Shown here: piece by piece, positions 28,480 through 61,618 of the stretch
How the letters are laid out: each line of letters starts with the position of its first letter
Numbering within the stretch: position 1 is the stretch's first letter
DNA from: an uncultured Candidatus Rokubacteria bacterium
GTDB lineage: Bacteria; Methylomirabilota; Methylomirabilia; Rokubacteriales; CSP1-6
NCBI GenBank assembly: GCA_963771355.1
Contig: CAVYTA010000005.1
Span: forward strand, 64,001 to 128,000
Direction of reading: 5' to 3'
Length of the DNA stretch: 64,000 nucleotides
Made by a program: the position numbers and the translations under genes
Notes under the pieces: model-generated
The model's database searches: none
Seen by the model: only the letters and a program-made list of their open reading frames with translations
Told to the model about the DNA's origin: nothing

Positions 28480-29508
28480 TCACCGGAACGCCGGCAGCAC
28501 CTCTTTGGCGAAGAGCTGCATCGATTTCATGATGCGCGGGTGCTCGAGGTCGCCGAACCAGAAGCTGCAGTTGAAGTGGGTGATGCCGACCATCTCCTTC
28601 ACGCGCGTGATCTGGCGGATGACGGTGTCCGGCGTGCCGATCACGAGGAAGCGATCGAGCAGGTCGTCGGTGTCCGGCTCTTTCGGGCCGGGGACGGCCA
28701 CGGCGCGGCCGCGCTCCACTTTCTCGTAGTGATTGCGCAGGCTGAGCGTGACGCGCATGTTCCAGCGCGCTTCCTCGGCGGCGGCGCGCGCGTCGGCCGC
28801 GTTCTCGGTGACATAGACCGCGCGCTGCACGCCGACCGCCGGCATGCGAGACGGCTTCAGCTCCGCGATCAGGCGATCGAACTGCCTCCGGAAGTCCGCC
28901 ATACGCTCGATCGGGACACCGAAGCCGCCGGTGAGCAGGTTGAAGCCGCGCCGCACCGTCGCTTCGACCGACTCGGGGCTCTGCGCCGTCACCCAGATGG
29001 GCGGGTGCGGCTTCTGCAGCGGCTGCGGGAAGATCGTCGTCTCCGGAATCTGGAAGAGCTTGCCGGCGTAGGTGAACGGCTCCCCGGTGAAGGCCTTGAG
29101 GATGATGTCGACGGACTCTTCCCATCGCGCCCGGGCGGTGTCGAGCTCCAGGCCCAGACGCTCGAACTCGTAGTGCTGGTAGCCGCGCCCGAGCCCGATG
29201 TCGACACGGCCGCCGGCCAGCTGGTCCAGGGTGGCGATCTCCTCCGCGATGACGAGTGGGTGATGCAGTGGCACCACGATGACAGCGGTCCCCACGCGCA
29301 GCCGCGTGGTCTTCGCGGCGAGAAAGGTGGCGAGCTGCGCCGGACGCGAGAGGTAGCCGTAGGTCGAGAAATGATGCTCGGCGAGCCACACATTGCTGAA
29401 GCCGAGCGTCTCGGCCGCCTGCGCGATGTCGACGGCCCGCGAGTAGATCTCCTGCGAGGAGCGCATGGACGGCGACTGCATCAGGAGGAAGGTGCCGAAA
29501 TTGATCAT
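28480..29508 (-). CDS. LLM-class flavin-dependent oxidoreductase
   Basis: VWLAEHHF, AEEIATLD, GLGRGY, PLQKPHPPIW. Confidence 0.93.
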   Translation of the reverse strand: MINFGTFLLMQSPSMRSSQEIYSRAVDIAQAAETLGFSNVWLAEHHFSTYGYLSRPAQLATFLAAKTTRLRVGTAVIVVPLHHPLVIAEEIATLDQLAGGRVDIGLGRGYQHYEFERLGLELDTARARWEESVDIILKAFTGEPFTYAGKLFQIPETTIFPQPLQKPHPPIWVTAQSPESVEATVRRGFNLLTGGFGVPIERMADFRRQFDRLIAELKPSRMPAVGVQRAVYVTENAADARAAAEEARWNMRVTLSLRNHYEKVERGRAVAVPGPKEPDTDDLLDRFLVIGTPDTVIRQITRVKEMVGITHFNCSFWFGDLEHPRIMKSMQLFAKEVLPAFR

Positions 29509-29515
29509 GGGCCAC

Positions 29516-29544
29516 ACTCTGCCCGGTCGCGGTAGCCCCGTCAA
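29516..29544 (-). promoter_or_regulatory. sigma70-type promoter TTGACG-N17-CAGAGT (leaderless LLM gene)
   Basis: -10 ends 7 nt before ATG 29508; homologous copy at 49161-49204. Confidence 0.65.
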
Positions 29545-29654
29545 GCGCGCGAGGGAGTCAAAACGGCGGCGCGCGAACGGCCACGCAAGGTCGGGGGTGC
29601 GCGTCCCGCGCGCCGCCAGCTTCAGGTCTTACTTCTCGTCGCGGATCGCCGCCT

Positions 29655-34900: not shown

Positions 34901-34926
34901 GGCTTCCTCCTGTGCATGCGGGCGAG

Positions 34927-34992: not shown

Positions 34993-35020
34993 CTGCCTCG
35001 CGGAGGGGAGCCCATAGCCC

Positions 35021-36514: not shown

Positions 36515-36613
36515 CGTCCGGGCGAGTGCTACCCCGCCCGCCGGTATCACCGAAGCTGTTCCGCGTTGACGGGTGCGGTTCTGAACGCTCGATACGACGA
36601 GGGAGGTGCCATC

Positions 36614-37639: not shown

Positions 37640-37673
37640 CGATTTGATGCGCGAGCAACTCGAGGAGGCCGCA

Positions 37674-38006: not shown

Positions 38007-38038
38007 TCGACCCCGGGCAAGGGTCACGACACCGGCGT

Positions 38039-38962: not shown

Positions 38963-39103
38963 ATCGTTCCTCCCGTGTCGGTCGTGGTGCCGGCGATTGT
39001 CCCACGATTGCGGTCTCGCGGCCAGACGAGGAGTCGTGGCATCGCGAGTCGGGAGATCGGATAGTCTGTATCCGACCGCTTGCGGAGATCAAGGAGAAAC
39101 GTC

Positions 39104-40276
39104 ATGCCCATGGACTCTGTGAACGAGCCGGATCGTGTCACCGATCCGAGCTCTCCCGTTCGTGACGAGCGGTCCTCTGCGACGGCCGAGCCCCTCGAGG
39201 CCGGGCCGGCCTTGTGCCTCTCCGGCGGGGGATACCGGGCGATGGTGTTCCACGTGGGCGTGCTCTGGCGTCTCAACGAGGCGCGCTACCTGCCGCGCCT
39301 GGCTCGCATCTCCAGTGTCTCGGGCGGGTCGATCACGGCCGGCGTCCTCGCCCTGCACTGGAAGGACCTGGCGTTCGATGCGGGCATCGCCAAGGCGTTC
39401 CAGGAGCAGGTCGTGGGCCCGATTCGGGACCTCGCCGGCCGGACGCTCGACGCCAAGTCGATCCTCGGAGGGCTGCTCCTGCCGGGCAGCATCGGTGAAA
39501 AGGTGGCGGCCGCCTACGACCGGCACCTCTTTCACGGGGCCACGCTTCAGGACCTGCCCGACACGCCGCGCTTCGTCATCAACGCCACCAACGTCCAGTC
39601 CGGCGCCCTGTGGCGATTCTCGAAGCCGTTCATGGCCGACTACCGGGTGGGACGAGTGGACGGACCCACGCTCCCGCTCGCTCTCGCCGTCGCCGCCTCC
39701 TCCGCGTTTCCCCCCGTCCTTTCACCCGTCGAGCTCGAGCTCGAGCCAGGCCAGGTACGCGCGCAGCCGGGCAATGATTTGTGTCGCGCCCCCTACACGA
39801 CCCACGTGGTGCTCACCGACGGCGGTGTCTATGACAACATGGGGCTCGAAACCGTCTGGAAGCGCTATCAGACGGTGCTGGTGAGCGACGCCGGCGGCAA
39901 GACTCAGCCAGAAGACGAGCCCGGGGAGGACTGGGCGCGGCACTCCCTGCGCGTCCTCAACCTGGTCGACAACCAGGTCCGGAGTCTTCGCAAGCGCCAG
40001 GTCATCGCGGCGTTCAAGGATGGAACGCGTCAGGGGGCGTACTGGGGCATTCGCACCGACATTGACGACTATCAGCTTGCCTCCGCATTCCCGGGCCCCT
40101 TCGCGAGGACCCTCGAGCTGGCCAACCTGCCGACGCGGCTCCAGCGCATGGAGCCCGAGATCCAGGAGCGCCTCATCAACTGGGGCTTCGCGGTCTGTGA
40201 TGCCGCGCTCCGCCGCCACGTGGAACCGGGGCTGCCGAAGCCGGATGGCCTGCCGTACCCCGCGCGAGGGATTTGA
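39104..40276 (+). CDS. Patatin-like phospholipase
   Basis: LSGGGYRA oxyanion hole, SSVSGG nucleophile, DGGVYDN. Confidence 0.9.
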   Translation: MPMDSVNEPDRVTDPSSPVRDERSSATAEPLEAGPALCLSGGGYRAMVFHVGVLWRLNEARYLPRLARISSVSGGSITAGVLALHWKDLAFDAGIAKAFQEQVVGPIRDLAGRTLDAKSILGGLLLPGSIGEKVAAAYDRHLFHGATLQDLPDTPRFVINATNVQSGALWRFSKPFMADYRVGRVDGPTLPLALAVAASSAFPPVLSPVELELEPGQVRAQPGNDLCRAPYTTHVVLTDGGVYDNMGLETVWKRYQTVLVSDAGGKTQPEDEPGEDWARHSLRVLNLVDNQVRSLRKRQVIAAFKDGTRQGAYWGIRTDIDDYQLASAFPGPFARTLELANLPTRLQRMEPEIQERLINWGFAVCDAALRRHVEPGLPKPDGLPYPARGI

Positions 40277-40293
40277 CCTGGAGGATGAGACCC

Positions 40294-42393
40294 ATGGCGC
40301 AAGGACCTGGAGAAGGGCAGCCCGGGAAGCTCACCCGGGAGCAGATGGACGCACTGCTCTACGGCGGGCGCAGCAGCCCGCGCTTCACGCAGGACTCGCC
40401 GGTGCTGCCCGACGTCTGGATCAAGTACGCCGAGGCGCCGAACGAGCCCCATGAGCTATTGCTGACGCCGTTCCAGGATTCGCAGGAGGGTACCGTCTCT
40501 GCGGGCCAGCTGAGCCGAGTGCTCAAGGCGTGCCTGGCTCTGCCGCAGGGCCGGCGCCCTCCCGGCGAGCCCCGGCGCCACGAGGGCCGCGGCGCCTCGG
40601 TAGCTTACAACCAGTCGACCGTTCTCGCCCGTCTCTGGTTCGACGAGCTGGTGCGAGTGGTGCTGCCGCTGTCGGCCTGGTGGCATCGGCTCGGCGAGAC
40701 GGGCCGGCCGACGGGCGCCGACCCGGACACGGCACCCGACGCGCAGGCGGCCGCGCGGCGGCTGACGCGACGGAACCTGTTGCAGTCGTTGCGCGCGCCG
40801 GCGGGGCAACAGCGTCTTGCCGAGGCGCTCGCCCACCCGGCCGCCGCGCCGCCCGAGCTCGCGCCCGACCTCCTCTGGATGGTGCACATCGTCGGCAGCC
40901 TCGGCCTGGTGTGGACGCGCGCTCGCGCTCAGGACACCACCGCTCAGTGGTGGCCGGAGGACGAAGAGGTGGTGGGAAAGATGGACGCGGCGCGGCGCCA
41001 GCTCTATGACGAGGCGCTCGCTCGGCACTACCGCGAGGTCGTGAAGAGCGTCATCGCGCTGACGGAAGGCCTCGAGGACGCACCCTGGTTGAGTGACGCG
41101 AAGCTGGAGACGGCCATGCAGGATCAGCCGATGGTGTGGACGGTCAGCCTGAACCGTCAGGCGCGGTCCACCATGTGGCGATCGCGCGCTACCGTCAAGG
41201 CGGACGCCGCCGCGCGGGTCTTCGACATCACCTGCAGCGAGCTCGCGTGGGCGGTGATCGACAGCGGCATCGACGCGCGTCACATCGCGTTCCGTCGCCG
41301 CAAGGGCGACGGGAAGCCCTATGACGAGCCCTTCGAGAACGACAAGAACCGGACCCGCATCGTCGCCAGCTACGACTTCAGCATCGTGCGCCGATTGCTC
41401 AGCGAGGAGACACTCGACGCCACTCTCCTGGAGTTGCCGGCGGGGCGTACCGCGGACGAGATTGCCCAGCGGGAGGTGGATGTCCAGGTCCTCAAGCGCC
41501 GGCTGGAGCGAGGGGCGGAGATCGACTGGGACGTCGTCGGTCGACTGATCCAGATCCCTCACGTGACGACCAGCGGGCGCGAGGGCTATCGGCCTCCCCA
41601 GCAAGAGCACGGGACCCACGTGGCCGGGATCCTGGCGGGGGACTGTCGCTCCACCGACCGCGACGATTCGAGCGCGTCCGCTCCGGTGGGCATCTGCCCG
41701 GACCTGCAGCTCTACGACCTGCGCGTGCTCGATGCCCGAGGCGAGGGCGACGAATTCAACGTGATGGCGTCGTTGCAGTTCGTCCGGCACCTCAACTCGA
41801 ATCACGGCGTCATGAGGGTGCACGGTGCGAACGTGAGCCTGTCGATCCGGCACGACATCGCCAACTTCGCCTGCGGGCGCACGCCGGTGTGCGAGGAGTG
41901 CGAACGGCTAGTGGGCGGCGGTATCGTGGTGGTGGCGGCGGCCGGAAACGACGGGTATCTGCAGTACCTGACCCCGCGCGGTCCGCAGGACAGCTATCGC
42001 AGCATCAGCATCACCGACCCCGGCAACGCGGCCGGCGTCATCACGGTGGGCTCCACGCACCGGTTCCAGCCGCATACGTACGGCGTCAGCTACTTTTCGA
42101 GTCGCGGGCCCACCGGCGACGGGCGGGCGAAGCCCGACGTGGTGGCCCCGGGGGAGAAGATCGAGGCGCCGGTGGGCGGCAAGGACGACTTGAAGCGCAT
42201 GGATGGGACCAGCATGGCGACGCCGCACGTGAGCGGCGCGGCGGCGCTGCTGATCGCGCGTCACCGGGAGCTGGCCGGCCAGCCCGCCCGGATCAAGGAG
42301 GTGCTCTGCGCGACCGCGACCGATCTGGGCCGGGAGCGTTACTTCCAGGGCGCCGGGCTGGTTGACACGCTCCGCGCCCTGCAGTCCGTTTGA
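40294..42393 (+). CDS. S8 subtilisin-like serine protease with long unknown N-terminal region
   Basis: IDSGID, HGTHVAG, AAGN, GTSMATPHV; GGAGG RBS at 40280-40284; no signal peptide. Confidence 0.92.
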   Translation: MAQGPGEGQPGKLTREQMDALLYGGRSSPRFTQDSPVLPDVWIKYAEAPNEPHELLLTPFQDSQEGTVSAGQLSRVLKACLALPQGRRPPGEPRRHEGRGASVAYNQSTVLARLWFDELVRVVLPLSAWWHRLGETGRPTGADPDTAPDAQAAARRLTRRNLLQSLRAPAGQQRLAEALAHPAAAPPELAPDLLWMVHIVGSLGLVWTRARAQDTTAQWWPEDEEVVGKMDAARRQLYDEALARHYREVVKSVIALTEGLEDAPWLSDAKLETAMQDQPMVWTVSLNRQARSTMWRSRATVKADAAARVFDITCSELAWAVIDSGIDARHIAFRRRKGDGKPYDEPFENDKNRTRIVASYDFSIVRRLLSEETLDATLLELPAGRTADEIAQREVDVQVLKRRLERGAEIDWDVVGRLIQIPHVTTSGREGYRPPQQEHGTHVAGILAGDCRSTDRDDSSASAPVGICPDLQLYDLRVLDARGEGDEFNVMASLQFVRHLNSNHGVMRVHGANVSLSIRHDIANFACGRTPVCEECERLVGGGIVVVAAAGNDGYLQYLTPRGPQDSYRSISITDPGNAAGVITVGSTHRFQPHTYGVSYFSSRGPTGDGRAKPDVVAPGEKIEAPVGGKDDLKRMDGTSMATPHVSGAAALLIARHRELAGQPARIKEVLCATATDLGRERYFQGAGLVDTLRALQSV

Positions 42394-42403
42394 GGAGGCG
42401 CAC

Positions 42404-43540
42404 ATGACGTTCACCCTCGAGGCCCTGGAAGCGAAGCACGGCGACTCGCTGCTCTTGCACTGGGGCCGCGAGCGTCTGATCGTCATCGACGGCGGGCCCT
42501 CTGGCGTCTTTCGCAAGACACTCCTGCCCCGCCTCGAGGCGATCCGGGCGGAGCGCGACGTCGAGACGCTGCCCATCCGCATGCTCATGGTCAGCCACAT
42601 CGACGACGACCATATCCATGGCGTACTCGACTGGACACGTCACATGGCCGATCTGCGCAAGGAGAGTAAGCCCCTCCCGTGGGAAGTGAAAAGCTTGTGG
42701 CACAACGCCTTCGATGACATCGTGGGCAACGTCGAGCCGCTGTCGTCCGCCCTGGGAGCGGCGGTGGCGCCGGTGATGAACGACGCCCCGTTGCCCGCGG
42801 ACCTGGGGCTCGACCGCTATGGCGCGCTCGTCATGGCCAGCGTCGCGCAGGGAAAGACCCTGCGCGACGACGCCCGGGCGCTCAAGCTGTCGGTCAACCA
42901 GCCGTTCAAGGGGCTGGTGTGGGCGCCGACCACGGAGAAGCGGGAAGTCGCGCTCGAGGACGGCCTGACGCTCAGGGTCATCGGCCCGCTCGAGGGCCAG
43001 GTGGAGGCGCTGCGGGCGGACTGGGACAAGAAGCTCCAGGAGATGAAAGAGAAGAAGCCCGGGGCCGAGGCGCGGGCCATCGCGGCCGACTTCGTGGACA
43101 AGTCGGTCTACAACCTGTCGAGCATCGTGGTGCTCGCGTCCCTCGGCGGCCGTCGCATGTTGCTGACCGGAGATGCGCGCGGCGACTTTGTCCGTGACGG
43201 GTTGCGAGACGCGGGCCTCTTCCCGAACGACCGCATTCACGTCGATCTTCTGAAGGTGCCGCATCACGGCAGCGCCCGGAACGTCAGGAGGGACTTCTTC
43301 GAACAGGTCACCGCCGACCACTACGTGATCTCTGCGGACGGGCGACACGACAACCCAGACGTGGAGATGCTGGCGATGCTGACCGAGGCGCGCGGGGCGG
43401 CCGAGTACACCATCCACTTCACGAACAAGGTTCCGGACGTGAAGAAGTTCTTCGACGGAGATCTGCCCAAGGGCCGCAAGTACCGGGTGATGTACCGAGA
43501 GGACGAGGCGACCTCGGTGAAGGTGGCGCTCGGCGGCTGA
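42404..43540 (+). CDS. MBL-fold metallo-hydrolase (ComEC/Avs1a-like)
   Basis: HGDS, IDGG, SHIDDDH, NLSS, TGDA, KVPHHGS. Confidence 0.88.
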   Translation: MTFTLEALEAKHGDSLLLHWGRERLIVIDGGPSGVFRKTLLPRLEAIRAERDVETLPIRMLMVSHIDDDHIHGVLDWTRHMADLRKESKPLPWEVKSLWHNAFDDIVGNVEPLSSALGAAVAPVMNDAPLPADLGLDRYGALVMASVAQGKTLRDDARALKLSVNQPFKGLVWAPTTEKREVALEDGLTLRVIGPLEGQVEALRADWDKKLQEMKEKKPGAEARAIAADFVDKSVYNLSSIVVLASLGGRRMLLTGDARGDFVRDGLRDAGLFPNDRIHVDLLKVPHHGSARNVRRDFFEQVTADHYVISADGRHDNPDVEMLAMLTEARGAAEYTIHFTNKVPDVKKFFDGDLPKGRKYRVMYREDEATSVKVALGG

Positions 43541-43550
43541 TTTCCGGCGG

Positions 43551-43650
43551 TATGATAGCGCCGTGGCCGGCACCGAACGTCTGACCCTCGGCAGATTTCT
43601 CGCCCGATTCGTCTTCGCCCTGCTCGTGGTGGACGCCACCTACAGCATCA
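43551..43650 (+). pseudogene. N-terminal remnant of small membrane protein (DUF6524-like) with leaderless promoter
   Basis: TATGAT 6 nt before GTG 43563; GRFLARFVFALLVVDATY, then similarity is lost. Confidence 0.45.
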
Positions 43651-43677
43651 AGTATCGAGGAAGCCCTGCCCCAACCA

Positions 43678-44820
43678 TCACCCCGCCAGGCGATAGAAGC
43701 GCTGGGCGTTCTCACCGAGAACCTTGCGGCGGGCGTCCTCGGGCAACGGCGCCAGGCGTTCCTTCAGCTCGCGGACCACGCCGAACGAGGCGTCGATGTG
43801 CGGATAGTCGGAGGCCCAGATGAAGTAGTCAGCGCCGAGGTGCTCGACCATCTGCGCGGTGACCGACTCGTCCGGGTCGGCGGAGATCAGGCACTGGCGG
43901 TAGAAATACGCGCTCGGCTCCATGCGGATGGGCGTCTGGTGTTTCATGATCCGGTACTTGTGATCGAGGCGATCGAGCCAGGCCGCGATCCAGTTGGAGC
44001 CGGCCTCCAGCACCGCGCACTTGAGGCGCGGATAGCGCTCGAACATCCCGGCGGCAAGCATCTGCGTGAAGGCCGCCATCACATCGATAGCCAGGAACGC
44101 GATGCTGAACAGTGCGTCGGAGGGATCGCGGCGCTGCCACTGTCGGAACCATTGTCGATCGCGCACGATCACGTGGAAGGCGATCGGCATCTCCAGTTCC
44201 TGAGCCGTCTCCCAGAAGCGCGCGAAGAGCGGGTCGTCAAAGTGGCGGCCGCGGCGGGCGGCCAGGTCCGGCGAGAGGAAGATGCCCACGCAGCCGTCTC
44301 GCCGCGCGCGAATGGTCTCCTGCACGGCGCCTTCAGGATCGAGGAGCGAGATGTGGGCGACCGGGTAGAGCCGCTTGCGATCCGTGCGGCAGAAGTCCAC
44401 CAACCACCGGTTGTAAGCGCGCGTGTAGGCGGTGGCCAGCCCCCCGTCGGTGACGTGCCCCTCCCAGCAAATGCCGATGGTGGGATAGAGGAGAACCGAG
44501 TCGATTCCCTCGGCGTCCATGACGCGCAGCCGCTCCACAGGATCATAGCCGCCGGCCGGACTCCCCTCGGCGTAGGTCATCCCGCCGCGGGTGAGGAGGC
44601 GCGTGGCATCCATCTCGATACCGCCGAGCGCTCCCATCTGCCCGCGCAGTGTCTTAAGCGGCTGGCCGTCGATGAGGAGCACCTCGTAGCCCTGCTCGTC
44701 GCGGGCGATCTGGATGGCGCGAGTCCGGTACGCGGGCTCGAGGTACTTCAGCCAGGTGTCGGCCGGCTCGAGGACGTGGCCATCGGCATCCACTACCGGG
44801 GCACCGACCGGGGTCGTCAT
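43678..44820 (-). CDS. Amidohydrolase_2 family protein
   Basis: DADGHVLE, RAYNRW, LEAG, WASDYPH. Confidence 0.9.
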   Translation of the reverse strand: MTTPVGAPVVDADGHVLEPADTWLKYLEPAYRTRAIQIARDEQGYEVLLIDGQPLKTLRGQMGALGGIEMDATRLLTRGGMTYAEGSPAGGYDPVERLRVMDAEGIDSVLLYPTIGICWEGHVTDGGLATAYTRAYNRWLVDFCRTDRKRLYPVAHISLLDPEGAVQETIRARRDGCVGIFLSPDLAARRGRHFDDPLFARFWETAQELEMPIAFHVIVRDRQWFRQWQRRDPSDALFSIAFLAIDVMAAFTQMLAAGMFERYPRLKCAVLEAGSNWIAAWLDRLDHKYRIMKHQTPIRMEPSAYFYRQCLISADPDESVTAQMVEHLGADYFIWASDYPHIDASFGVVRELKERLAPLPEDARRKVLGENAQRFYRLAG

Positions 44821-45039
44821 CGTCTTCGCCTCCCTTGCGCCGGGCGGATGCCCGGATCGCCTGTTTGCCGACCAGCGAACGTTCGACGGTTGGCAGCTTA
44901 CTCCAAGAGACGTCCCGGAGCCGCCCCCCCCCGCGGCGCCGGCCCTGCTCCGGGCATTCCTCCGCGCCTTGCGGACACGATACCCGGAGTGTCGAATGGA
45001 ACGGGAGTAGGCGACACGTGTTTCCGCGCAGTTGGTGCC

Positions 45040-45054
45040 TGGCATTCGCGTTGC
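45040..45054 (+). promoter_or_regulatory. Candidate sigma54 promoter TGGCATTCGCGTTGC
   Basis: GG(-24)/GC(-12) at correct spacing, upstream of ATG 45139. Confidence 0.5.
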
Positions 45055-45138
45055 CTTTAGCGGCCGAGGTCAACGAAACTCGGACGTGAGACGGCCGGGC
45101 CCCACGCCCGCAGCCTCCCGTCGACAAGGAGCGTCACG

Positions 45139-46506
45139 ATGACCCTTGAGACTCATCCGATCGCTGCCCTTCGCTCCCAGCTTGCCGGCTCCGTTCTCGC
45201 CCCCTCGGATGCGGAATATGACGACGCCCGACGCCTTCACAACGGCCTGATCGACCGGCGGCCGGCCCTGGTCGTCCGCTGCCACGGGACGGCCGACGTC
45301 CAGGCGGCCGTGCGTTTCGGCCGCGAGCGGGGCCTCGAGATCGCCGTCCGTGGTGGCGGCCATAACGTGGCCGGCAATGCGGTCTGCGACGGCGGCCTCA
45401 TGATCGACCTGTCTCCGATGCGTGCGGTGCACGTCGACCCGCGCACGCGCCGAGCGCGGGCTCAGGGCGGCGCGACCTGGGGGGACTACAACCGTGAAAC
45501 CCAGCTCCACGGCCTCGCCAGCACTGGGGGCGTCGTCTCTTCCACGGGCGTCGGGGGGCTGACCCTCGGCGGCGGGCTGGGCTGGCTGATGGGCAAGCAC
45601 GGCATGGCGGTGGACACCCTCCGGGCCGTCGAGCTCGTCACCGCCACCGGCGAGATCGTGCAGTCGAGCCCAAAGGAGCACCCCGACCTCTTCTGGGCCC
45701 TGCGCGGGGGTGGCGGCAATTTCGGCGTCGCGACGTGGCTCGAATACGAGCTGTATCCGGTGGGCCCGACGGTGATCGCCGGGCTCGTCGCGCACCCCTT
45801 CACCGCGGCGCGCGACGTCCTCAGATTCTACCGCGACTTCACGGCGTCACTGCCCGACGAGCTAACGGCGTTCGCCGGCCTCCTGCACGCCCCCGACGGC
45901 TCGGGCGCCAAGCTGGCGGCCATCATCGTGTGTCATGCGGGGAGTCTGGAGGCCGGAGCCGCGGCGGTGGCCCCCGTCAAGCGCTTCGGCTCGCCCGTCA
46001 TGGACGTGATTGGACCGATGCCGTACACGGCGGTGAACATGATGGTCGACGGGGGATTTCCTCGCGGCGCGTTGAACTACTGGAAGTCGAACTTCCTTTC
46101 GACGCTCGGTGACGCGGCCATCGACACGATGATCGAGCACTTCGCCGGCGCGCCCTCGCCGATGAGCGGCCTTCTGCTCGAGCACTTCCACGGTGCGGCG
46201 ACGCGCGTGGGGCCGACGGAGACCGCCTTCCCCCACCGCGCGGTGGGGTACAACTTCTTGGCGGTCGGGGAGTGGATGGAGGCCTCGGCCACCACGGCCA
46301 ACGTCGCCTGGACACGCGGGGCATATGCCGCGCTGGCGCCACATTTCGCCGCGGGCCGGTACGTCAATTATCTGAACGCGGAGGAGATGGACCAGGCGGG
46401 CGCGGTGGAGGCCGCGTTCGGGCCGAACTGGAAGCGGTTGCGCGAGGTCAAGCGACGCTATGATCCCGAGAACGTCTTCCATCTGAACCAGAACATCAAG
46501 CCGTGA
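45139..46506 (+). CDS. FAD-linked oxidase, BBE/6-hydroxy-D-nicotine oxidase family
   Basis: RGGGHN, GLTLGGG, DLFWALRGGGGNFG, YVNY, KRRYDPENVF. Confidence 0.93.
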   Translation: MTLETHPIAALRSQLAGSVLAPSDAEYDDARRLHNGLIDRRPALVVRCHGTADVQAAVRFGRERGLEIAVRGGGHNVAGNAVCDGGLMIDLSPMRAVHVDPRTRRARAQGGATWGDYNRETQLHGLASTGGVVSSTGVGGLTLGGGLGWLMGKHGMAVDTLRAVELVTATGEIVQSSPKEHPDLFWALRGGGGNFGVATWLEYELYPVGPTVIAGLVAHPFTAARDVLRFYRDFTASLPDELTAFAGLLHAPDGSGAKLAAIIVCHAGSLEAGAAAVAPVKRFGSPVMDVIGPMPYTAVNMMVDGGFPRGALNYWKSNFLSTLGDAAIDTMIEHFAGAPSPMSGLLLEHFHGAATRVGPTETAFPHRAVGYNFLAVGEWMEASATTANVAWTRGAYAALAPHFAAGRYVNYLNAEEMDQAGAVEAAFGPNWKRLREVKRRYDPENVFHLNQNIKP

Positions 46507-47487: not shown

Positions 47488-47517
47488 GGAGCTGGCGCCA
47501 CGAGCACGGCGCAGGAG

Positions 47518-47649
47518 GCCCGCATCGCCGGCCTCGACCGCGTGCTCGCCCACATCCAGCGCCGGGGCGGGGCCTGGATCGCCCGGCGTGACGCGATCGC
47601 GCGGCACTGGCTCCGAACCCACGGCCGGTCGAGCGGGGCTTCTGCCTGA
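47518..47649 (+). pseudogene. C-terminal remnant of PuuE-type allantoinase/polysaccharide deacetylase
   Basis: ARIAGLDRVLAHIQRRGGAWIARRDAIARHW...*. Confidence 0.7.
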
Positions 47650-47662: not shown

Positions 47663-48334
47663 CTACCGTCCGGCGAGGGCACGATTCTCCAGCCGGCTCA
47701 AGAGCCGTACCACCGGCCACAGCATCAGAAAGTAAATTACCGCCGCCACCACGATGGGCGTCGGACTGTAGGTGATGCTCTGCGCTTGACGCGCCTGATA
47801 GAGGAGCTCGGGCACAGCCACCACGCTGCCGAGCGAGGTGAGCTTCACCACCTCGAGCGTGTTGGAGAGCAGGTCGGGCAGCACGTTGCGCACCGCCTGG
47901 GGCAGCACCACGTAGGCCATGGCCTGCAGGCGGGAGAGGCCGGTGGACCGCGCGGCCTCGACCTGGCCGGCCGGTACGGAATCGATTCCCGCCCGCAGGA
48001 TTTCGCCGTAGTAGGCCCCGGTGTTGAGGAAGAAGGCGACGGCCACACAGGCGAAGCCGCCCAGCTCCAGCCCCGCGAACGGGAGCCCGGCGAACAATAG
48101 AATGAGTAGCACCAAGGGCGGAAAGGCCCGGAAGAAATCGACCCAGGCCATCAGCGGCCAGCGCAGCACGGGATTCTTCACACTTGCCAGCAGGGCCAGG
48201 ATCAGCCCGCCGAACAGGCCGAGCGGCACCACCAGCAGCGACAGCAGCACGGTGTTGCGCAGCCCCGCCAGCACGATCGGCCAGGAAGCGGCGATGATCT
48301 CCGGATTGAAGAAGGTCTGGATCATCGCTTCCAC
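47663..48334 (-). CDS. Polar amino-acid ABC permease
   Basis: FFRAFPPLV, AYYGEILRAG, QVEAARSTG, LPQA. Confidence 0.93.
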   Translation of the reverse strand: MEAMIQTFFNPEIIAASWPIVLAGLRNTVLLSLLVVPLGLFGGLILALLASVKNPVLRWPLMAWVDFFRAFPPLVLLILLFAGLPFAGLELGGFACVAVAFFLNTGAYYGEILRAGIDSVPAGQVEAARSTGLSRLQAMAYVVLPQAVRNVLPDLLSNTLEVVKLTSLGSVVAVPELLYQARQAQSITYSPTPIVVAAVIYFLMLWPVVRLLSRLENRALAGR

Positions 48335-49005
48335 GCGAACTTGGTCTCGACCCAGCGGGCCGCCACCACGACGGGGAGGAACAGCACCAGGTAGGCGGCG
48401 GCGCCCATCATCAGCGGCGAGGGATTGTAGGAGTTGGACATCGCCGAGCTTGCTTGCCCGAGGATCTCGGTGACGGCGACGACGGTGCCAAGCGCGGTGC
48501 CCTTGGTGATGGCGATGGTACGGTTAGTGAGCGGGGGGATGGTGAGCCGGAGGGCCTGCGGCAGCACGACGTTCATCAGGGTGTGGCCGAACGACAGGCC
48601 GGTCGAGCGCGCGGCCTCCCACTGGCCCTTGGGCACCGAGGTGATGCCGGCCCAGAAGATCTCCTCGGAGAAGGCCATCAGCACGAAGGCGAGCGACAGC
48701 CAGGTCGAGACGAAGCCCGAGGGTGAGAGGTCGACGCTGGGCAGGCCGAAATAGATGAGGACGATGACGACCAGCGGCGGCAGCGAGCGGAACAGGTCGA
48801 CGGTGAAGATGATGAGCCAGTTGAGCGGACGGATGGCGAGGCTTCTGAGCAGCGCCAGGGCCAGGCCGGCGGCAATGCCGGTGACGACGATGAGGAGGGC
48901 CAGCTCGATCGTGACCACCACGCCGGACAGGATGTCCGGCAGGTACTTGAGCATGACCTTGGTGTTGAAGAACGTGTCGGTGAAGCGGTCCCAGTTCCCG
49001 CTCAA
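48322..49005 (-). CDS. Polar amino-acid ABC permease (TTG start coupled to upstream TGA)
   Basis: LFRSLPPLV, GQWEAARSTG, LPQA, KGTAL. Confidence 0.88.
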   Translation of the reverse strand: MSGNWDRFTDTFFNTKVMLKYLPDILSGVVVTIELALLIVVTGIAAGLALALLRSLAIRPLNWLIIFTVDLFRSLPPLVVIVLIYFGLPSVDLSPSGFVSTWLSLAFVLMAFSEEIFWAGITSVPKGQWEAARSTGLSFGHTLMNVVLPQALRLTIPPLTNRTIAITKGTALGTVVAVTEILGQASSAMSNSYNPSPLMMGAAAYLVLFLPVVVAARWVETKFAWKR

Positions 49006-49168
49006 TGCCGTTGGATCTGGCCGATGAAGGTGCGCGTGCGCTCCTGGGCGGGGTTCTCGAAGATGGCGGCGGGCGGACCCTGCTCCACGATGGCGCCCGC
49101 ATCCATGAAGAGGACCCGGTCGGTGGCGTTCCGGGCAAAGCCCATCTCGTGGCTGACCACGATCATGG
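48964..49168. repeat. Direct repeat A (ATPase 3' end + permease 5' end)
   Basis: 49002-49168 equals 52701-52867 with 3 substitutions; weaker similarity extends to 48964/52660. Confidence 0.92.
49002..49166 (-). pseudogene. Duplicated C-terminal 54 codons of the ABC ATPase as a mini-ORF (MIVVSHEMGF...QIQRH*)
   Basis: In frame from ATG 49166 to TGA 49002. Confidence 0.8.
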
Positions 49169-49173
49169 GCGAC

Positions 49174-49203
49174 ACTCTGCCCGGTCACCGTGATCCCAGT
49201 CAA
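49174..49203 (-). promoter_or_regulatory. Promoter TTGACT-N18-CAGAGT, homolog of the LLM gene promoter
   Basis: 49161-49186 matches 29503-29528 at 25/26 nt. Confidence 0.7.
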
Positions 49204-49384
49204 GTCGGCGGGGGATGGCAGGTCAATCCGGAGGAAGCACCACGTTCGCCGCCCGGTAGAAGATGAGGATGAGGGCGATGGCCAGCATGCTCGTGCTGGA
49301 CGCCGCTCCCGCCACCCGATACCATGGTGGGACCAGTCCGAGCTCCAGCCAGCGCCCCGCCACCATCAGGCCGGCGAAGGCACC

Positions 49385-49424
49385 GATCGTGGTGTGCGTC
49401 ACCTGATCGTGGTGTGCGTCACCT
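49385..49424 (+). repeat. 20-bp perfect tandem duplication
   Basis: GATCGTGGTGTGCGTCACCT x2. Confidence 0.9.
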
Positions 49425-49482
49425 GGACGAGCACCCGGGAGCAAACGGGAGATTGTTGGTCGTCAAGAGGAGATCGAACACG

Positions 49483-50739
49483 ATGATGCGGACGGCCAGC
49501 GTGCTTCGCGCAATTGTCCGGTCCACCAATGCCGCAGGCTCGATGCTTAGCCGAGCCGGGCTGCCTCTCGTCTCGCTCGACGAGGGAAGTTTGCTCGACG
49601 CCGCCCGCCGCGCCACGGGGCTGGACGACCTGGGCGGCGACGGCTTTCGCGAGCCCTTGAGGATGGTGCTGCAGGGACTCGAAGCCGAGGCCCGGCTCAC
49701 GCTCGTGGGCCGCATCGCGGCGCGGCAAGACGTCATCGGCCTCCTCGCGAATCGCCTGCGTCTCGAGGAGGACGGCAAGCGGCATCCGGAGATCGGGGCG
49801 CAAGACGTCCCGCAGCCGCTCTTCATCGTGGGGCTGCCGCGCACGGGAAGCACGCTCCTCCACCACCTTCTGGCCCAGGACCCGGGCAGTCGCGTCGCCC
49901 AGGCATGGGAGGTCATGTTCCCGTCGCCGCCGCCCGAGGCCCGGAGGTACCAGACCGACCCGCGGATCGCCCGTGCCGCTCGGCAGCTCGCGTGGTTCGA
50001 TGCGCTCACCCCCGAGTTCAAGTCGATCCACCCCCTCGGGGCACAGCTCGCGCTCGAGTGCATCGCCATCATGAGTCCGACCTTTCTCTCCCCCCGCTTC
50101 CACACGACCTACCACGTGCCGACATACCAGGAGTGGCTCGAGCGACAAGACCTGCGCCCGGCCTACCGCTTTCACCGTCGGTTTCTCCAGCAGCTGCAAT
50201 GGCGGGCGCCGGCCCGGCGATGGGTCCTGAAGGCGCCCTCGCACCTCTTTGCCTTCGACGCGCTCCTGGAGACGTATCCCGACGCCCGCATCGTGCAGAC
50301 CCACCGCGATCCACTCACCGTGCTGGCGTCCGTCGCGAGCCTGACCGCCGTCCTCCAGCGCGCGTTCACCGACGACCTTAACCCCCTCGAGATCGGCCGC
50401 GAGGTGAGCCGGCGCTGGACGAACGGGCTCGACCGGGCCATGCGGCTCCGGCGCAGCGGCCGAGTTCTCGCCGAGCGATTCATCGACGTGCACTATCACG
50501 AGATGGTCCGTGACCCCATGGCGGTGGTGCGGCGGATCTACGCGCACTTCGACATCCCGCTGACCGAGGCCGCGGCGGAGTCGATGCGCCGGTTCCTCGC
50601 CGAGAACCCCAAGGACAAGCACGGCGCCCATCGGTACTCCCTGAGCTCGTTCGGGCTCGAGGCGGACGATCTTGCCCGGCGGTTCAAGGCCTATCGCGAG
50701 TTTTACGGCGTGCCCCGGGAAGAGGTTTCGCCGCAGTGA
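49483..50739 (+). CDS. PAPS-dependent sulfotransferase (Sulfotransfer_3-like)
   Basis: IVGLPRTGSTLLH 5'-PSB, WVLKAPSHL, THRDP...S 3'-PB; AAGAGGAG RBS. Confidence 0.9.
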   Translation: MMRTASVLRAIVRSTNAAGSMLSRAGLPLVSLDEGSLLDAARRATGLDDLGGDGFREPLRMVLQGLEAEARLTLVGRIAARQDVIGLLANRLRLEEDGKRHPEIGAQDVPQPLFIVGLPRTGSTLLHHLLAQDPGSRVAQAWEVMFPSPPPEARRYQTDPRIARAARQLAWFDALTPEFKSIHPLGAQLALECIAIMSPTFLSPRFHTTYHVPTYQEWLERQDLRPAYRFHRRFLQQLQWRAPARRWVLKAPSHLFAFDALLETYPDARIVQTHRDPLTVLASVASLTAVLQRAFTDDLNPLEIGREVSRRWTNGLDRAMRLRRSGRVLAERFIDVHYHEMVRDPMAVVRRIYAHFDIPLTEAAAESMRRFLAENPKDKHGAHRYSLSSFGLEADDLARRFKAYREFYGVPREEVSPQ

Positions 50740-50748
50740 GGCGCGACA

Positions 50749-52464
50749 CTACCTGACGAAGCCCTGGCGTTCGAGATACTCGAGCACTCGGCGTGCGTTC
50801 TGATCGGGGCCGGTGACCACGGTGTCGAGGGTGATCTCGGGGGACTCCGGCGTCTCGTAGGGGTCGTCGATACCCGTGAACCCCGTGATTTCTCCGCGCC
50901 GGGCTTTCGCGTAGACACCTTTGCTGTCGCGCCGCTCGCAGACCTCCAGCGGCGTGTCCACGAAGACCTCGACGAAGTGATCGGCCCCCACCAGGTGGCG
51001 CACCTCGTCGCGCGTCGTGCGGTACGGGCTCACCGCCGCGCACAGGGCCACGCCCCCGTGCCGCACGATCTCGGCGGCGACGAATCCGATACGCCGGATA
51101 TTGGTGTCGCGGTCCTCCTTGCTGAAGCCCAGGCCCTTGGATAGGTGGGTGCGTACCACGTCACCGTCCAGCACGGTGATCTGCCGGCCGCGCTCGAGCA
51201 GCAGCACGGTGAGGATCTCGGCGGTGGTGGACTTGCCGGCGCCGCTGAGCCCGGTGAACCACACGCACACGCCCTGTCGGTGGCGCGGAGGGTAGGTGTC
51301 CATGAGGATCTGGCCGACCTCGGGCCGGGTAAACCAACCGGGGAGCTTCTCGCCGGCGTTGAGGAAATCTTCACGGACCTGGGTGCCCGAGATGGAGGCA
51401 GTCCGCGCGTTCGTGGGGATGCGCGAAATCTCCTCGTAACGGTCCTCGTCGGGCAGGTACATCATCTCGCCGAACGGCAGCATCCCGATGCCCAGCTCCT
51501 CCTGGAAGCGCCCGACCAGCTCCTGGGCGTCGTAGGCCCCGTAGAAGGGCTTGCCGGCGGAGTCCAGGCCGGGGCTGGCGTGATCGCGGCCGACGATGAA
51601 GTGGCTCGCCCCATGATTGCGCCGGATAAGAGCGTGCCACACTGCCTCGCGCGGTCCCGCCATGCGCATGGCGAGCGGGAGGAGGGCCAGGAGCACGCGC
51701 CCACGCTCGTAGTAGCGCTCGACCAGCACCTTGTAGGTCCGCACGCGCGTGTAGTAGTCCACGTCGCCCGGCTTGGTCATCCCCACCACCGGGTGCAGGA
51801 GTAGGGTGCCTGCCACCGCGTCGGCCGCGCGCCGGGTGAGCTCCTCATGGGCCCGATGCAGCGGATTCCGCGTCTGGAATGCGACGACATTGGCGGCGCC
51901 TAGGGCGGCGAGCCGGGCGCGGGTCTCGGCGGGGGTCAGGCGGATGTCGCGGAAGTCATGACGCGGCGGCAGGGCCAGGATCTGCAAGGGGCCCGACAGG
52001 TTGATGTCACCCCACCGCTGCGTCTCGGCGACCAGCGGGTGGCGCACATCGCACGTACCGAGAACCTGCTGCGCTGTCGCCGCCCGATCCCACTCGTAGG
52101 CCTCATCGATCGTCATGAGCCCCAGCAGCTCGTTGTGGGCGTCGCGGAGCGCCACCTGCTGGTCGAGGCGCACTGCCGGCGTCCGGTCCACCGGCAGGAC
52201 GACGGGGATGGGAAAGAGCTGGCCGGTTGCCAGCCGCATCTCGCCTACCACCCGCTCGAAGTCGCTCCGGCTCATGAAACGGTTGAGTGGCGAGAACCCG
52301 CCGGTGGCCAGGAGCTCGAGGTCATAGACCGCGCGCTCCGAGAGCTGGATCGAGGGAAGACGATTGGCGCGGGCGCGCAGCTCGGCCTGGGCTTCTGCGG
52401 GGACAATCAGGTTGACGAGAGACCCGCCGACGGGCGGGACCAACCCGGTAGAGGACGTGGTCAT
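50749..52464 (-). CDS. sat/cysC: Bifunctional sulfate adenylyltransferase / APS kinase (PAPS synthase)
   Basis: FQTRNPLHRAH, VGRDHA, ISGT, WFTGLSGAGKST, LDGD, FTGIDDPYE. Confidence 0.95.
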   Translation of the reverse strand: MTTSSTGLVPPVGGSLVNLIVPAEAQAELRARANRLPSIQLSERAVYDLELLATGGFSPLNRFMSRSDFERVVGEMRLATGQLFPIPVVLPVDRTPAVRLDQQVALRDAHNELLGLMTIDEAYEWDRAATAQQVLGTCDVRHPLVAETQRWGDINLSGPLQILALPPRHDFRDIRLTPAETRARLAALGAANVVAFQTRNPLHRAHEELTRRAADAVAGTLLLHPVVGMTKPGDVDYYTRVRTYKVLVERYYERGRVLLALLPLAMRMAGPREAVWHALIRRNHGASHFIVGRDHASPGLDSAGKPFYGAYDAQELVGRFQEELGIGMLPFGEMMYLPDEDRYEEISRIPTNARTASISGTQVREDFLNAGEKLPGWFTRPEVGQILMDTYPPRHRQGVCVWFTGLSGAGKSTTAEILTVLLLERGRQITVLDGDVVRTHLSKGLGFSKEDRDTNIRRIGFVAAEIVRHGGVALCAAVSPYRTTRDEVRHLVGADHFVEVFVDTPLEVCERRDSKGVYAKARRGEITGFTGIDDPYETPESPEITLDTVVTGPDQNARRVLEYLERQGFVR

Positions 52465-52528
52465 GTGACTCTCCTGGCGCTAAGTGGAATTGGCCAGGGG
52501 CATTCTACTCGCGGCCGACGGAGCCGCA

Positions 52529-52550
52529 GCATAGGACTTAGGGCCTATGC
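52529..52550. promoter_or_regulatory. Inverted repeat GCATAGG-N8-CCTATGC upstream of sat
   Basis: Perfect 7-bp arms; TAGAAT -10 on the minus strand at 52507-52502. Confidence 0.5.
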
Positions 52551-52659
52551 CAACTGCTTCCGGACCTTCTCCGGGGATTGTTCGACCCCAGCTGCCCCGC
52601 CGACGGATTCCGCGAGCGCTGCCTCGAGTGGGCCAACGTGGATGCATGTCGAACGTGAC

Positions 52660-52867
52660 GTTGAAGGACGTCTCGGTGAAGCGATCCCACCTCGACGACA
52701 TCAATGCCGCTGGATCTGGCCGATGAAGGTGCGCGTGCGCTCCTGGGCGGGGTTCTCGAAGATGGCGGCGGGCGGACCCTGCTCCACGATGGCGCCCTCA
52801 TCCATGAAGAGGACCCGGTCGGCGGCGTTCCGGGCAAAGCCCATCTCGTGGCTGACCACGATCATGG
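52660..52867. repeat. Direct repeat B (ATPase 3' end + truncated, diverged permease start MSSRWDRFTETSFN)
   Basis: See repeat A. Confidence 0.9.
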
Positions 52868-53441
52868 TCATGCCGCTCTCGCGCAAGGAGCGCATGACCT
52901 CGAGCACCGAGCCCACCAGCTCCGGATCGAGCGCGCTGGTCGGCTCGTCGAACAACATGACCCGAGGCTCGAGCGCGATCGCGCGCGCGATGGCCACTCG
53001 TTGCTGCTGGCCGCCCGAGAGCTGGCCCGGCGTGTGACCGGCGCGGTCACCGAGGCCGACCCGCTCCAGGGCGGCCTGGCCCAGCGCCTCGGCGCCGGCA
53101 CGCGACTTGCCCGCGACCTTGCGGAGCGCGAGCGTCACGTTGCCGAGCGCCGTCATGTGCGGATAGAGATTGAAGGACTGGAACACCATGCCGATGCGCT
53201 GGCGGGCATGGTTGATGTCGGTCCGCGGGTCGAGCATGTCGATACCGTCCACCACCACGCTGCCGGAGGACGGCTCCTCCAGTCGATTGAGGCAGCGCAG
53301 CAGGGTCGACTTGCCCGAGCCCGACGGCCCGATGACGAACACCAGCTCGCGCTCGGCCACCCGGAGATCGACACCCTTCAGGACATGAAGGGCGCCGAAA
53401 TGCTTGTGGAGGCCGCGCGCGTCGACGATCGGGTTGTTCAT
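52701..53441 (-). CDS. Polar amino-acid ABC ATP-binding protein (GlnQ-like)
   Basis: GPSGSGKST, LSGGQQQR, FDEPTSALDPE, SHEMGFA. Confidence 0.95.
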   Translation of the reverse strand: MNNPIVDARGLHKHFGALHVLKGVDLRVAERELVFVIGPSGSGKSTLLRCLNRLEEPSSGSVVVDGIDMLDPRTDINHARQRIGMVFQSFNLYPHMTALGNVTLALRKVAGKSRAGAEALGQAALERVGLGDRAGHTPGQLSGGQQQRVAIARAIALEPRVMLFDEPTSALDPELVGSVLEVMRSLRESGMTMIVVSHEMGFARNAADRVLFMDEGAIVEQGPPAAIFENPAQERTRTFIGQIQRH

Positions 53442-53450
53442 TCCCTCAGG

Positions 53451-54302
53451 TCAGCTGCACTTGAGCTCGTGCGGCGTGGGGTCGTAGCCCGGCATGCCCG
53501 GCACGCCGTAGCCCGGCGTGATCACCACCTCGAGGCCGTCGGCCGGCGGCTTGCGGCCGAACCACTTCTCGGAAAGCTTGGCGATGCTGCCGTCCTTCTT
53601 CATGCAGTCGAGCGCATCCTGGAGCTCGGCGCGGAGCTTCGGGTTGTTCTTGGGCACCGGCGCCGCCCAGTGGGCGCGCGTGTCCTTGAGCTCCAGGTCG
53701 GCCACGAATTGCGGGTTCTTCGACGCGGCGTAGACGATGGTGGTGTTGCCGCCGAGGGTCGCATAGGCGCGGCCGGAGAGGACCGCCTGGGTGGCGTCCG
53801 GCTGGTTGTCGTAGACCTGTACCGTGAAGTCGTGCTCGGCACCCTTGGCCTTGGACAGCGTCTCATACGGGGTGCCCTTGTTGACGGCCACCGACTTCCC
53901 CTTGAGGTCGGTCCAGTCCTTGATCGGGGCCGAGCCCTTCTTGATGCCGAACTGGTACGCGGTCCACAGGTAGCCCGCGGTGAACAGCATGTTCTCCGCC
54001 CGCTCCTTGGTCACCGTGGTCGGCGCGGCGATGAAGTCGTAGCGGCCGGACTGCATGCCCGGGATCAGGGTGGAGAAGCTCACGGCGTCGATGGTGATCT
54101 CGCGCTTCAGGCGGCGCGCGACCTCGGTGAAAAGGTCGATCTGGAAGCCCTCGACGCCGCCGCCCATCTTGGGCATGGCGTGCGGCGCGAAGGTGCCATC
54201 GACGCCGGTCCTGAGCGGCGGAAGCTTGTCCTGGGCGAGCGCGGGACCCGCGCAGAGAAGAGCGGTTACCGCAATGGCGGCAAAGCGACGATGCATCATC
54301 AT
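53451..54302 (-). CDS. Polar amino-acid ABC substrate-binding protein (SBP3)
   Basis: Signal peptide; EGFQIDL, TKER, DLKGKSV, KWFG. Confidence 0.93.
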   Translation of the reverse strand: MMMHRRFAAIAVTALLCAGPALAQDKLPPLRTGVDGTFAPHAMPKMGGGVEGFQIDLFTEVARRLKREITIDAVSFSTLIPGMQSGRYDFIAAPTTVTKERAENMLFTAGYLWTAYQFGIKKGSAPIKDWTDLKGKSVAVNKGTPYETLSKAKGAEHDFTVQVYDNQPDATQAVLSGRAYATLGGNTTIVYAASKNPQFVADLELKDTRAHWAAPVPKNNPKLRAELQDALDCMKKDGSIAKLSEKWFGRKPPADGLEVVITPGYGVPGMPGYDPTPHELKCS

Positions 54303-57896: not shown

Positions 57897-58766
57897 CTAC
57901 TTCTTCCCGCCCTGGGCCTTCCGTGCGGGGGTCGTGGCGGCGGGCTCGGTACGGGCGACCTTGACGGGAGGCTTGCGTGGGGCGGCCCCGGCGGCGCGCT
58001 TGGCGAGGCTCTCCTTGAGGGCCTCCATGAGATCGATAACCTGGCTCCGCGGTGCCTCGGCGGTCGCCGTCGTGATCTCCTTGCCCTCGACCTTCTGGTT
58101 CACCATGTCGAGGATGCGCTCGCGATACTCGTCCCGGTACTGGTCGGGCTTGAACTCCTCGGTCGAGAGCTCGTCGACCAGCTTCCGGGCGAGCTCCCCT
58201 TCGCGCTCCTGGACCTTGGCGGACTTTCCCTTGTCGATCTCGCCGAAGTCGCGCACCTCGTCGGCAAAGTACATCGTGTGGAGCATGAGGCCGTCCTGCG
58301 CGGGGCGGACCAGGACGAGGCTCTCCTTGCCGCGCATGAGGAACCGGGCGACCGCCACGCGGTTGGCCTTGGCCATGGTCTCGGCGAGGAGTCGATAGGC
58401 CTTGTCTCCGCCCTTGTCGGGTCCGAGGTAGTACGTCTTCTCGAAGTAGATCGGATCCACCTGGGTGAGGGGCACGAACTCCGCGATGTCGATCACCTTG
58501 GAGTCCTCGCCCTCGAGCGACTTGAGCTCCTCGTCGCTCACCCGCACGTACTGGTCCTTGGAGAACTCGTAGCCGCGCACGAGCTCGTTCCGCTCGACCA
58601 CCACCTGGCAGGCGGGACAGAATGTCTGCTGCTTGATGCGGGATCCGCACTTGGCGTGGAGCATGTTGAAGGCCACGTTCGCGGAGACCGCGGCGGAGTA
58701 GAGCTTCACGGGGATGGAGACGAGCCCGAAGGAGATGGTGCCGGACCCGATGGAATGCGGCGGCAT
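57897..58766 (-). CDS. ku: NHEJ Ku protein
   Basis: GTISFGLVSIPVKLY, RGYE, YYLGP, AYRLL, VIDLMEALKESL, basic tail. Confidence 0.96.
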   Translation of the reverse strand: MPPHSIGSGTISFGLVSIPVKLYSAAVSANVAFNMLHAKCGSRIKQQTFCPACQVVVERNELVRGYEFSKDQYVRVSDEELKSLEGEDSKVIDIAEFVPLTQVDPIYFEKTYYLGPDKGGDKAYRLLAETMAKANRVAVARFLMRGKESLVLVRPAQDGLMLHTMYFADEVRDFGEIDKGKSAKVQEREGELARKLVDELSTEEFKPDQYRDEYRERILDMVNQKVEGKEITTATAEAPRSQVIDLMEALKESLAKRAAGAAPRKPPVKVARTEPAATTPARKAQGGKK

Positions 58767-58898
58767 GGAGCACTCCTCCTGTATGGTGAACTGAATTCGA
58801 CGGTATCACGGGCTTCTCGGGGGTTCAAAACCTTGGCAGCGTCGGCGGCCGGCTCCAATGGATAGGGTGCGAGGCGGCGGTCATGGGCGAGGGATGGT

Positions 58899-61457: not shown

Positions 61458-61490
61458 GGGCCCATCTGCGACGTCCCGGTAAGCCGGGAC

Positions 61491-61618
61491 GCCGGGCGGC
61501 GAGAAGGGTCCAGATGCGAGGCGGCGCCCGACGGCCGCACGCGAAGGCGTACTTTCTGTACGTTGAGCGTGCGGCCGAGGGCGCCAACGACGCAGATGGG
61601 CCCTTCTCGCCGCCCGGC
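61491..61618. repeat. 128-nt MITE/REP-like long hairpin with 28-bp terminal inverted repeats
   Basis: GCCGGGCGGCGAGAAGGGtCCAgaTGCG ... CGCAGATGGGCCCTTCTCGCCGCCCGGC (25/28) plus nested stems. Confidence 0.8.

Follow-up and report, generated by a model that had tools for sequence, protein, structure and literature searches.

How did a pair of sulfation genes come to lie inside an amino acid transport operon, between two copies of the end of one of the operon's own genes? The question is raised by a 64,000-nucleotide stretch from an uncultured Candidatus Rokubacteria bacterium (assembly GCA_963771355.1, contig CAVYTA010000005.1, positions 64,001 to 128,000; G000:C5:64001-128000), hereafter the window, in whose coordinates positions are given unless a contig is named. 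In it, genes for a sulfotransferase and for Sat-CysC, a bifunctional sulfate adenylyltransferase/adenosine 5'-phosphosulfate (APS) kinase, separate the ATPase gene from the two permease genes of an ATP-binding cassette (ABC) transporter operon. The first-pass annotation had read this as a self-sufficient sulfation cassette taken up from a relative. We conclude with moderate confidence that the locus is the trimmed scar of an additive recombination between related soil bacteria and involves no mobile cassette; the intervening 3.5 kb are a leftover after deletions, not the unit that arrived. The locus is real in the assembly and probably also in nature.

The repeat-flanked anatomy was confirmed in the assembly (5.5 Mb in 8 contigs; completeness 99.77%, contamination 2.16%). 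The 3' end of the ATPase gene is present twice (49002-49168 and 52701-52867), as 167-nt copies of 98% identity with a spacing of 3699 nt, and the three substitutions that had been reported between them were found again, two of them being non-synonymous. Including the permease start, the repeat covers 208 columns at 93.75% identity and scores 311 bits, compared with 36.5 bits for the best of 20 hexamer shuffles of the 16 kb around the locus. The two permease starts also read as described, all four transporter genes of the operon are intact, and the GC content of the insert (0.66-0.71) equals that of the flanks. As previously stated, there is no integrase or transposase among the main open reading frames (ORFs) scanned in 40-64 kb.

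Along the operon direction, the ATPase gene is followed by a permease-start vestige, a spacer, the Sat-CysC upstream region, Sat-CysC, the opposed sulfotransferase gene, a copD scrap, a promoter-like copy, and the second ATPase tail. The copD 3' scrap with its 20-bp duplication, the promoter-like copy, and a 54-codon mini-ORF had been overlooked. The scrap carries private amino acid changes, and the 90-bp spacer had no match to the permeases, the genome, or the fetched loci. The promoter-like copy corresponds to the region upstream of a luciferase-like monooxygenase gene, which lies downstream of the locus in the predicted orientation. The junction copy is 82% identical over 55 bp to the resident one (29503-29556), with 9 mismatches plus gaps in 59 columns, and shows 9 and 12 mismatches to two other genomes; orthologous upstream copies were found in G001 and G003. 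An 8-bp microhomology, CCATGATC, joins the promoter-like copy to the ATPase interior at an internal ATG, and this fusion sets the ATG in frame with the ATPase tail, giving the open 54-codon ORF. The stop codon of this ORF overlaps the permease 1 start codon (TTG), with an identical overlap in the intact operon, and the mini-ORF would keep the permeases coupled and expressed.

Related genomes were compared for an uninterrupted operon, as had been proposed, and the junction was uninterrupted in all 29 relatives from which it was extracted, loci with a match short of the ATPase end being left out. The ATPase-permease junction is hypervariable among relatives. The ENA assembly L048, which matches the window at 90-95% identity across all genes, has the order substrate-binding protein, ATPase, permease 1, permease 2, Sat-CysC, sulfotransferase, HpnN-like transporter, and CopD; a duplication from the ATPase end to copD, with opposite copies lost afterward, would yield the window order. 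A segment of 4.2-4.3 kb present in relatives, with the HpnN-like gene and most of copD, is gone here. The JGI contig L037 (92%) carries the sulfotransferase gene, no HpnN-like gene, an intact copD, and, after about 25 bp, the beginning of permease 1, of which 65 bp are present before the contig stops. The sulfotransferase tree places L037 as sister to the window (0.85), and both lie in a clade with L048 and L036 (0.98).

Among the 41 genomes searched, a contiguous 3-kb pair with 80-84% DNA identity was found in four of the seven same-genus genomes (G001, G004, G006, and G007; partial in G005), where it is accompanied by an HpnN-like transporter gene and copD and sits away from the intact operon. 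Silent divergence of Sat-CysC and the sulfotransferase tracks the values for the operon and for the FAD oxidoreductase gene, with 0.17-0.20 versus 0.11-0.17 to L048, 0.39-0.40 versus 0.28-0.36 to G006, and 0.41-0.51 versus 0.30-0.50 to G001 and G004. This tracking, and the position of the pair right behind the intact operon in L048, speak against the earlier claim that the insertion delivered a new capacity. A foreign origin of the pair was ruled out by its flank-like GC content, its occurrence in the genus, the neighbor-tracking silent divergence, and the trees. The comparison instead marks the pair as native to the group, forming an accessory cluster found in the genus and in close relatives of it. 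In the operon tree, the window groups with other genera and not with its genus-mates, which points to recent horizontal exchange of the ABC operon across genera. Identity over the operon (47663-54302) is 92-96% to genomes of four other genera and 83-90% to genus-mates. The downstream neighborhood, with the FAD oxidoreductase gene, resembles G001, G004, and G007, not L048.

The diverged permease start had been taken for a second allele, and it is indeed one. Over 41 columns, the vestige differs from the L037 permease start by a single mismatch and a 3-nt gap, compared with seven mismatches and the same 3-nt gap to the window's working permease. Differences between the two repeats amount to 7 of 38 at the permease start versus 3 of 167 in the ATPase part (Fisher p 0.0004). 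The permease start and the promoter suggest that the duplicated parts come from two lineages, whereas the 167 bp are nearly identical. The right repeat was closer than the left to the relatives in 29 of 29 comparisons, and the left is therefore the decaying copy. In an approximately unbiased (AU) test, run like its counterpart below with only 5000 replicates, the upstream half grouped with L048 and the alternative was rejected (p 0.02).

The proposed scar would have formed in three steps. Incoming DNA in an L048-like order, terminating in the luciferase-like promoter and start, would have been linked by the 8-bp microhomology to the internal ATG of the ATPase gene. Its entry into the resident operon by a single crossover, or by a comparable anchored event, would have left the incoming genes flanked by two copies of the ATPase end and of both permeases. 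Deletions may then have taken the first permease pair except for 41 bp, the HpnN-like gene, and most of copD. Finally, the captured promoter and translational coupling to the 54-codon ATPase remnant would express the downstream permeases, so that the transporter probably still works. The features of the locus are listed in Table 1. Ku, LigD (three domains), and DUF72 genes at 57897-62346 make up a locus for non-homologous end joining, 5 kb away, in which Ku and LigD could supply the joining activity.

Table 1. Features of the interrupted transporter operon and of the resident luciferase-like gene, in window coordinates
Feature	Position	Strand	Evidence
Polar amino acid ABC substrate-binding protein (SBP_bac_3)	53451..54302	-	profile
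ABC ATPase, GlnQ-like, intact; last 167 bp = right repeat	52701..53441	-	profile and repeat search
Permease-1 start vestige, 41 bp, L037-type allele; remainder of permease deleted	52660..52700	-	
Spacer of ~90 bp at deletion joint	52567..52659	.	no match in genome or fetched loci
Sat-CysC upstream region, conserved with L048 (there directly after permease 2)	52465..52566	-	
Bifunctional sulfate adenylyltransferase/APS kinase (PAPS synthase), 571 aa	50749..52464	-	PRK05537
PAPS-dependent sulfotransferase, 418 aa; start picked by homology	49483..50739	+	PF13469
CopD-like gene 3' scrap, 60-70 codons	49223..49433	-	
20-bp tandem duplication within copD scrap, beside deletion joint	49385..49424	.	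sequence
Promoter-like region and first two codons of luciferase-like monooxygenase gene, copy, 57 bp	49161..49217	-	homology
Left repeat, carrying the ATPase 3' remnant as an open mini-ORF of 54 codons	49002..49168	-	
Permease 1, intact, TTG start	48322..49005	-	
Permease 2, intact	47663..48334	-	
Resident luciferase-like monooxygenase gene with own promoter-like region	28480..29556	-	

Several observations weigh against this reconstruction. Alleles as divergent as the two permease starts should differ at more than three sites in 167 bp, and gene conversion or a second recombination must therefore be added; with the left copy the more derived, the near-identity has the appearance of recent decay or of gene conversion. 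The alleles are reversed in L037, whose CopD-side permease corresponds to the vestige's allele and which breaks off 65 bp into that gene, and L048 contains many frameshift errors. For the downstream half, the AU test rejected neither the L048 grouping (p 0.37) nor the alternative (p 0.63), with 1 versus 5 informative sites. A copD gene directly followed by the luciferase-like gene occurred in 0 of 159 genomes. A sigma-70 consensus scan of 47.4-54.5 kb returned no promoter, so that the captured promoter is assigned by homology and position only, and no same-species reads or contigs were seen across either junction. Terminator-like sites were three and weak, compared with 2.3 in shuffles, and none lay between the ATPase gene and Sat-CysC.

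The sulfation locus is one of about a dozen similar scars in the genome. Local repeats comprised 106 direct pairs (34 unique) and 17 inverted pairs (2 unique), as counted in this one genome with a home-made gene caller and with tandem paralogs biasing the count toward direct pairs. Fifteen unique direct pairs at 12 loci, the sulfation locus included, combine one coding and one non-coding copy. At a second scar (G000:C5 350782-353137; L093 2283-4638), scraps of a peptide permease end and of a luciferase-like gene end are repeated after two genes. When L093 was compared with contigs of four soil runs, one contig bridged the left border as assembled and others reached the borders by about 30 letters, none spanning the whole; a clean empty form was also present in three runs, alongside the assembled form in public soil contigs. 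Four genus-mates carry the filled order without the scrap. This second scar is real and polymorphic. The single-base indels at L093 positions 546 and 1086, at which the assembly is contradicted by three or four runs, are residual assembly errors. Further unique direct repeats at G000:C5 47395-48929, C3 51331-54134, C6 321065-322679, and C6 2744724-2746531 each consist of a gene end and a non-coding scrap, sometimes internally deleted.

Taken alone, the sulfation locus is an ordinary gene-order rearrangement that corrects the notion of a new mobile sulfation cassette. As a worked example, it offers three natural states of one duplication-and-trim path that can be aligned, and about a dozen similar scars, one of them polymorphic in soil metagenomes, make integrase-free shuffling testable in an abundant uncultured phylum. 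We suggest only tentatively that Rokubacteria in soil routinely shuffle and add accessory genes in this integrase-free manner, through additive recombination with a duplicated gene end and later trimming, and that the locus is a natural, datable intermediate, with L048 as the state before, L037 and the window as trimmed outcomes, and a captured promoter and an ATPase-tail leader peptide as the means of rescue.

The strongest competing explanation, which we regard as somewhat unlikely, is a tandem duplication confined to the chromosome itself and arising at the same microhomology, followed by reciprocal loss and a later allelic swap of the working permease start. Starting from the L048 order, it yields the identical gene order, accounts for the orientation of the downstream luciferase-like gene, fits the excess of unique direct over inverted repeat pairs (34 versus 2), and invokes a process demonstrated in the laboratory according to the accessible text of PMC9016547. 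The HpnN loss and the adjacency of copD and permease recur in L037, the window's sister in the sulfotransferase tree, as if the duplication predated the split. However, the ATPase remnant is only 1.8% diverged compared with about 10% silent change on the branch since L037, and an extra event is needed to explain the two alleles and a promoter copy that is 15-20% off the resident one. Moreover, no second Sat, sulfotransferase, or HpnN remnant was found downstream of permease 2; a search of the relatives' site (G000:C5 157-165 kb) likewise yielded no second cluster copy or remnant-bearing gap.

Less probable still is a chimeric assembly of co-occurring strains with differing gene orders in this long-read metagenome-assembled genome. 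Two alleles meet at the repeat, the junctions of the locus have no read evidence, and the 8-contig assembly contains the single-base indels contradicted by public contigs at L093. A chimera would not, however, explain why only one of the repeat copies shows private decay (29 of 29), why a start codon is the site of a microhomology fusion, or why the independent short contig L037 has nested deletions in common with the window. Every gene involved is present in a single genome copy at the low contamination given above, and at the second scar a public contig (X1 record 3) bridges the assembly's form. In 18 of 24 runs, from seven studies, 77-92% of the words sampled from 47.6-54.4 kb were present, a share that reflects near-identical co-occurrence of the operon and the sulfation genes rather than their order, and one of these runs may be the source; runs X19-X24, with a word share of 0.41 or less, were not used.

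A non-autonomous cassette that targets the ATPase gene by homology and cycles as a circle is very improbable, since, despite direct repeats long enough for RecA recombination, a patchy sulfotransferase, and coexisting filled and empty forms at the other scar in three runs, no second instance of the 3.7-kb unit came up among 159 genomes and 23 metagenome loci, its borders are gene scraps and not defined ends, it has no recombinase, origin, or att-like site, and the empty form of the second scar is a clean deletion (joint 2275 to 4367) and not a repeat-excision product. Repeat-mediated excision would return the operon to its uninterrupted state at the cost of 3,699 bp, and given the missing replication origin and recombinase this would amount to plain loss, not mobility.

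The sulfotransferase has an intact frame and matched PF13469 with 165.6 bits (gathering cut-off 27), and Sat-CysC passed the equivalog cut-off of PRK05537 (816.9 versus 669 bits). They are the genome's sole PF13469 gene and sole ATP sulfurylase, and the genome has no match to the PAPS/APS reductase family (PF01507; PAPS, 3'-phosphoadenosine 5'-phosphosulfate). Sat-CysC makes PAPS for the sulfotransferase; in view of these counts it probably serves sulfation only, and the two genes probably make up all of the genome's capacity for sulfation with PAPS. The self-sufficiency asserted by the first-pass annotation holds to this extent, but not as a self-contained cassette bringing new capacity, the pair belonging to a genus accessory cluster that usually includes HpnN-like and CopD genes. 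On the window branch, pN/pS was 0.18-0.19 for the sulfotransferase, 0.085 for Sat-CysC, and 0.04-0.07 for the operon genes, and purifying selection acts on all of them. The sulfotransferase is present in 16 of 159 family genomes and ATP sulfurylase in 30 of 83 near-complete ones; the closest titled genome homologs of the former (77-84% identity) belong to Ca. Rokubacteria, Ca. Methylomirabilota, and one Verrucomicrobiia.

The usual neighbor of the sulfotransferase gene encodes an HpnN-like resistance-nodulation-division (RND) transporter, found in 10 of the 13 closest metagenome loci (of the other three, one is without an HpnN-like gene and two are without upstream sequence) and within 1.5 kb in 11 of 18 genome loci, the two counts being non-independent as some may share organisms. 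CopD follows HpnN in the closest loci. The G006 protein did not reach the TIGR03480 cut-off (542.9 versus 751.85) and is therefore termed HpnN-like only. Based on this usual neighbor, the molecule that is sulfated is probably hydrophobic, a lipid for instance, and the conserved Sat-CysC, sulfotransferase, and HpnN-like cluster suggests an uncharacterized sulfated lipid. In the literature, we found no paper on this cluster, nor on such scars in Rokubacteria. The Sat-CysC, sulfotransferase, HpnN-like RND, and CopD cluster is conserved in L027 (13368-19210), L041, L044, L048, and L069. Two more distant HpnN-like genes (51%) occur elsewhere in this genome. At G000:C5 605336-615252, an HpnN-like gene lies amid phosphonate-synthesis-like genes (mutase, decarboxylase halves, and nucleotidyltransferase, as labeled from N-terminal sequences).

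Other features of the window were noted. A C-terminal gene scrap of about 45 codons (47488-47649, plus strand) lies between an NHL gene and permease 2; it is 38% identical to an ORF in L013, its full copy is absent from the genome as searched, and it presumably derives from a polysaccharide deacetylase-type gene. A row at 39104-43540 of an ORF that we take from its motifs to be patatin-like, a 706-aa S8 protease, and a metallo-hydrolase-like ORF without a Pfam match could be a defense-type operon. The gene set at 33229-46506 recurs within about 50 kb in G001, G004, G006, and G007, in differing orders.

Among known systems, the sulfotransferase resembles the mycobacterial PAPS-dependent enzymes in fold family and PAPS use. 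The closest solved structures, nearly full length, are PDB 2zq5 (E 8e-68) and 2z6v (E 8e-58), which are labeled uncharacterized in the structure database and which we take to be Stf1 and Stf9. The sulfotransferase here is linked to its own PAPS synthase. It differs in its usual neighbor, the HpnN-like RND transporter that adjoins it in relatives and has been lost from this genome. M. tuberculosis has four such sulfotransferases, as stated in the accessible part of PMC3141025. The available text of PMC13449962 gives no known substrate for STF1 and describes gut relatives that act on sterols or hydroxy fatty acids; the likeness of our protein to these lipid sulfotransferases (BtSULT and ErSULT) is one of description, not of alignment.

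With respect to its origin, the locus showed, in the main ORFs, genomes, and metagenome loci searched, none of the marks of recombinase-driven mobile elements such as insertion sequences, integron cassettes, integrative elements, or genomic islands, namely an own or nearby integrase, defined ends, recurrence, and foreign composition. It shares the lack of any required recombinase with single-crossover integration and homology-facilitated illegitimate recombination (HFIR). As described in the accessible text of PMC3240628, a single crossover of recircularized DNA leaves duplications of 109-950 bp, and illegitimate joints in HFIR show microhomologies of 3-10 bp; the gene-end duplication (167-208 bp) and the 8-bp microhomology seen here fall within these ranges. 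HFIR proper deletes recipient DNA, whereas here recipient DNA was duplicated and the four operon genes are intact; the event here would be a natural one between soil bacteria, with several later deletions. The closing comparison is with SNAP, the reordering of genes by duplication and stepwise loss, whose authors, in the available text of PMC7055797 and PMC9016547, proposed seeking such intermediates in natural genomes. Both involve a duplicated segment, loss of opposite copies, a new order, and pseudogene scraps beside working copies; relative to L048, the permeases were retained downstream and the ATPase and sulfation genes upstream. SNAP further posits that the duplication gains from positive selection when a new niche is entered. 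SNAP operates on a megabase scale versus about 10 kb here, and it differs from the scar described in this work, in which two alleles point to foreign DNA.

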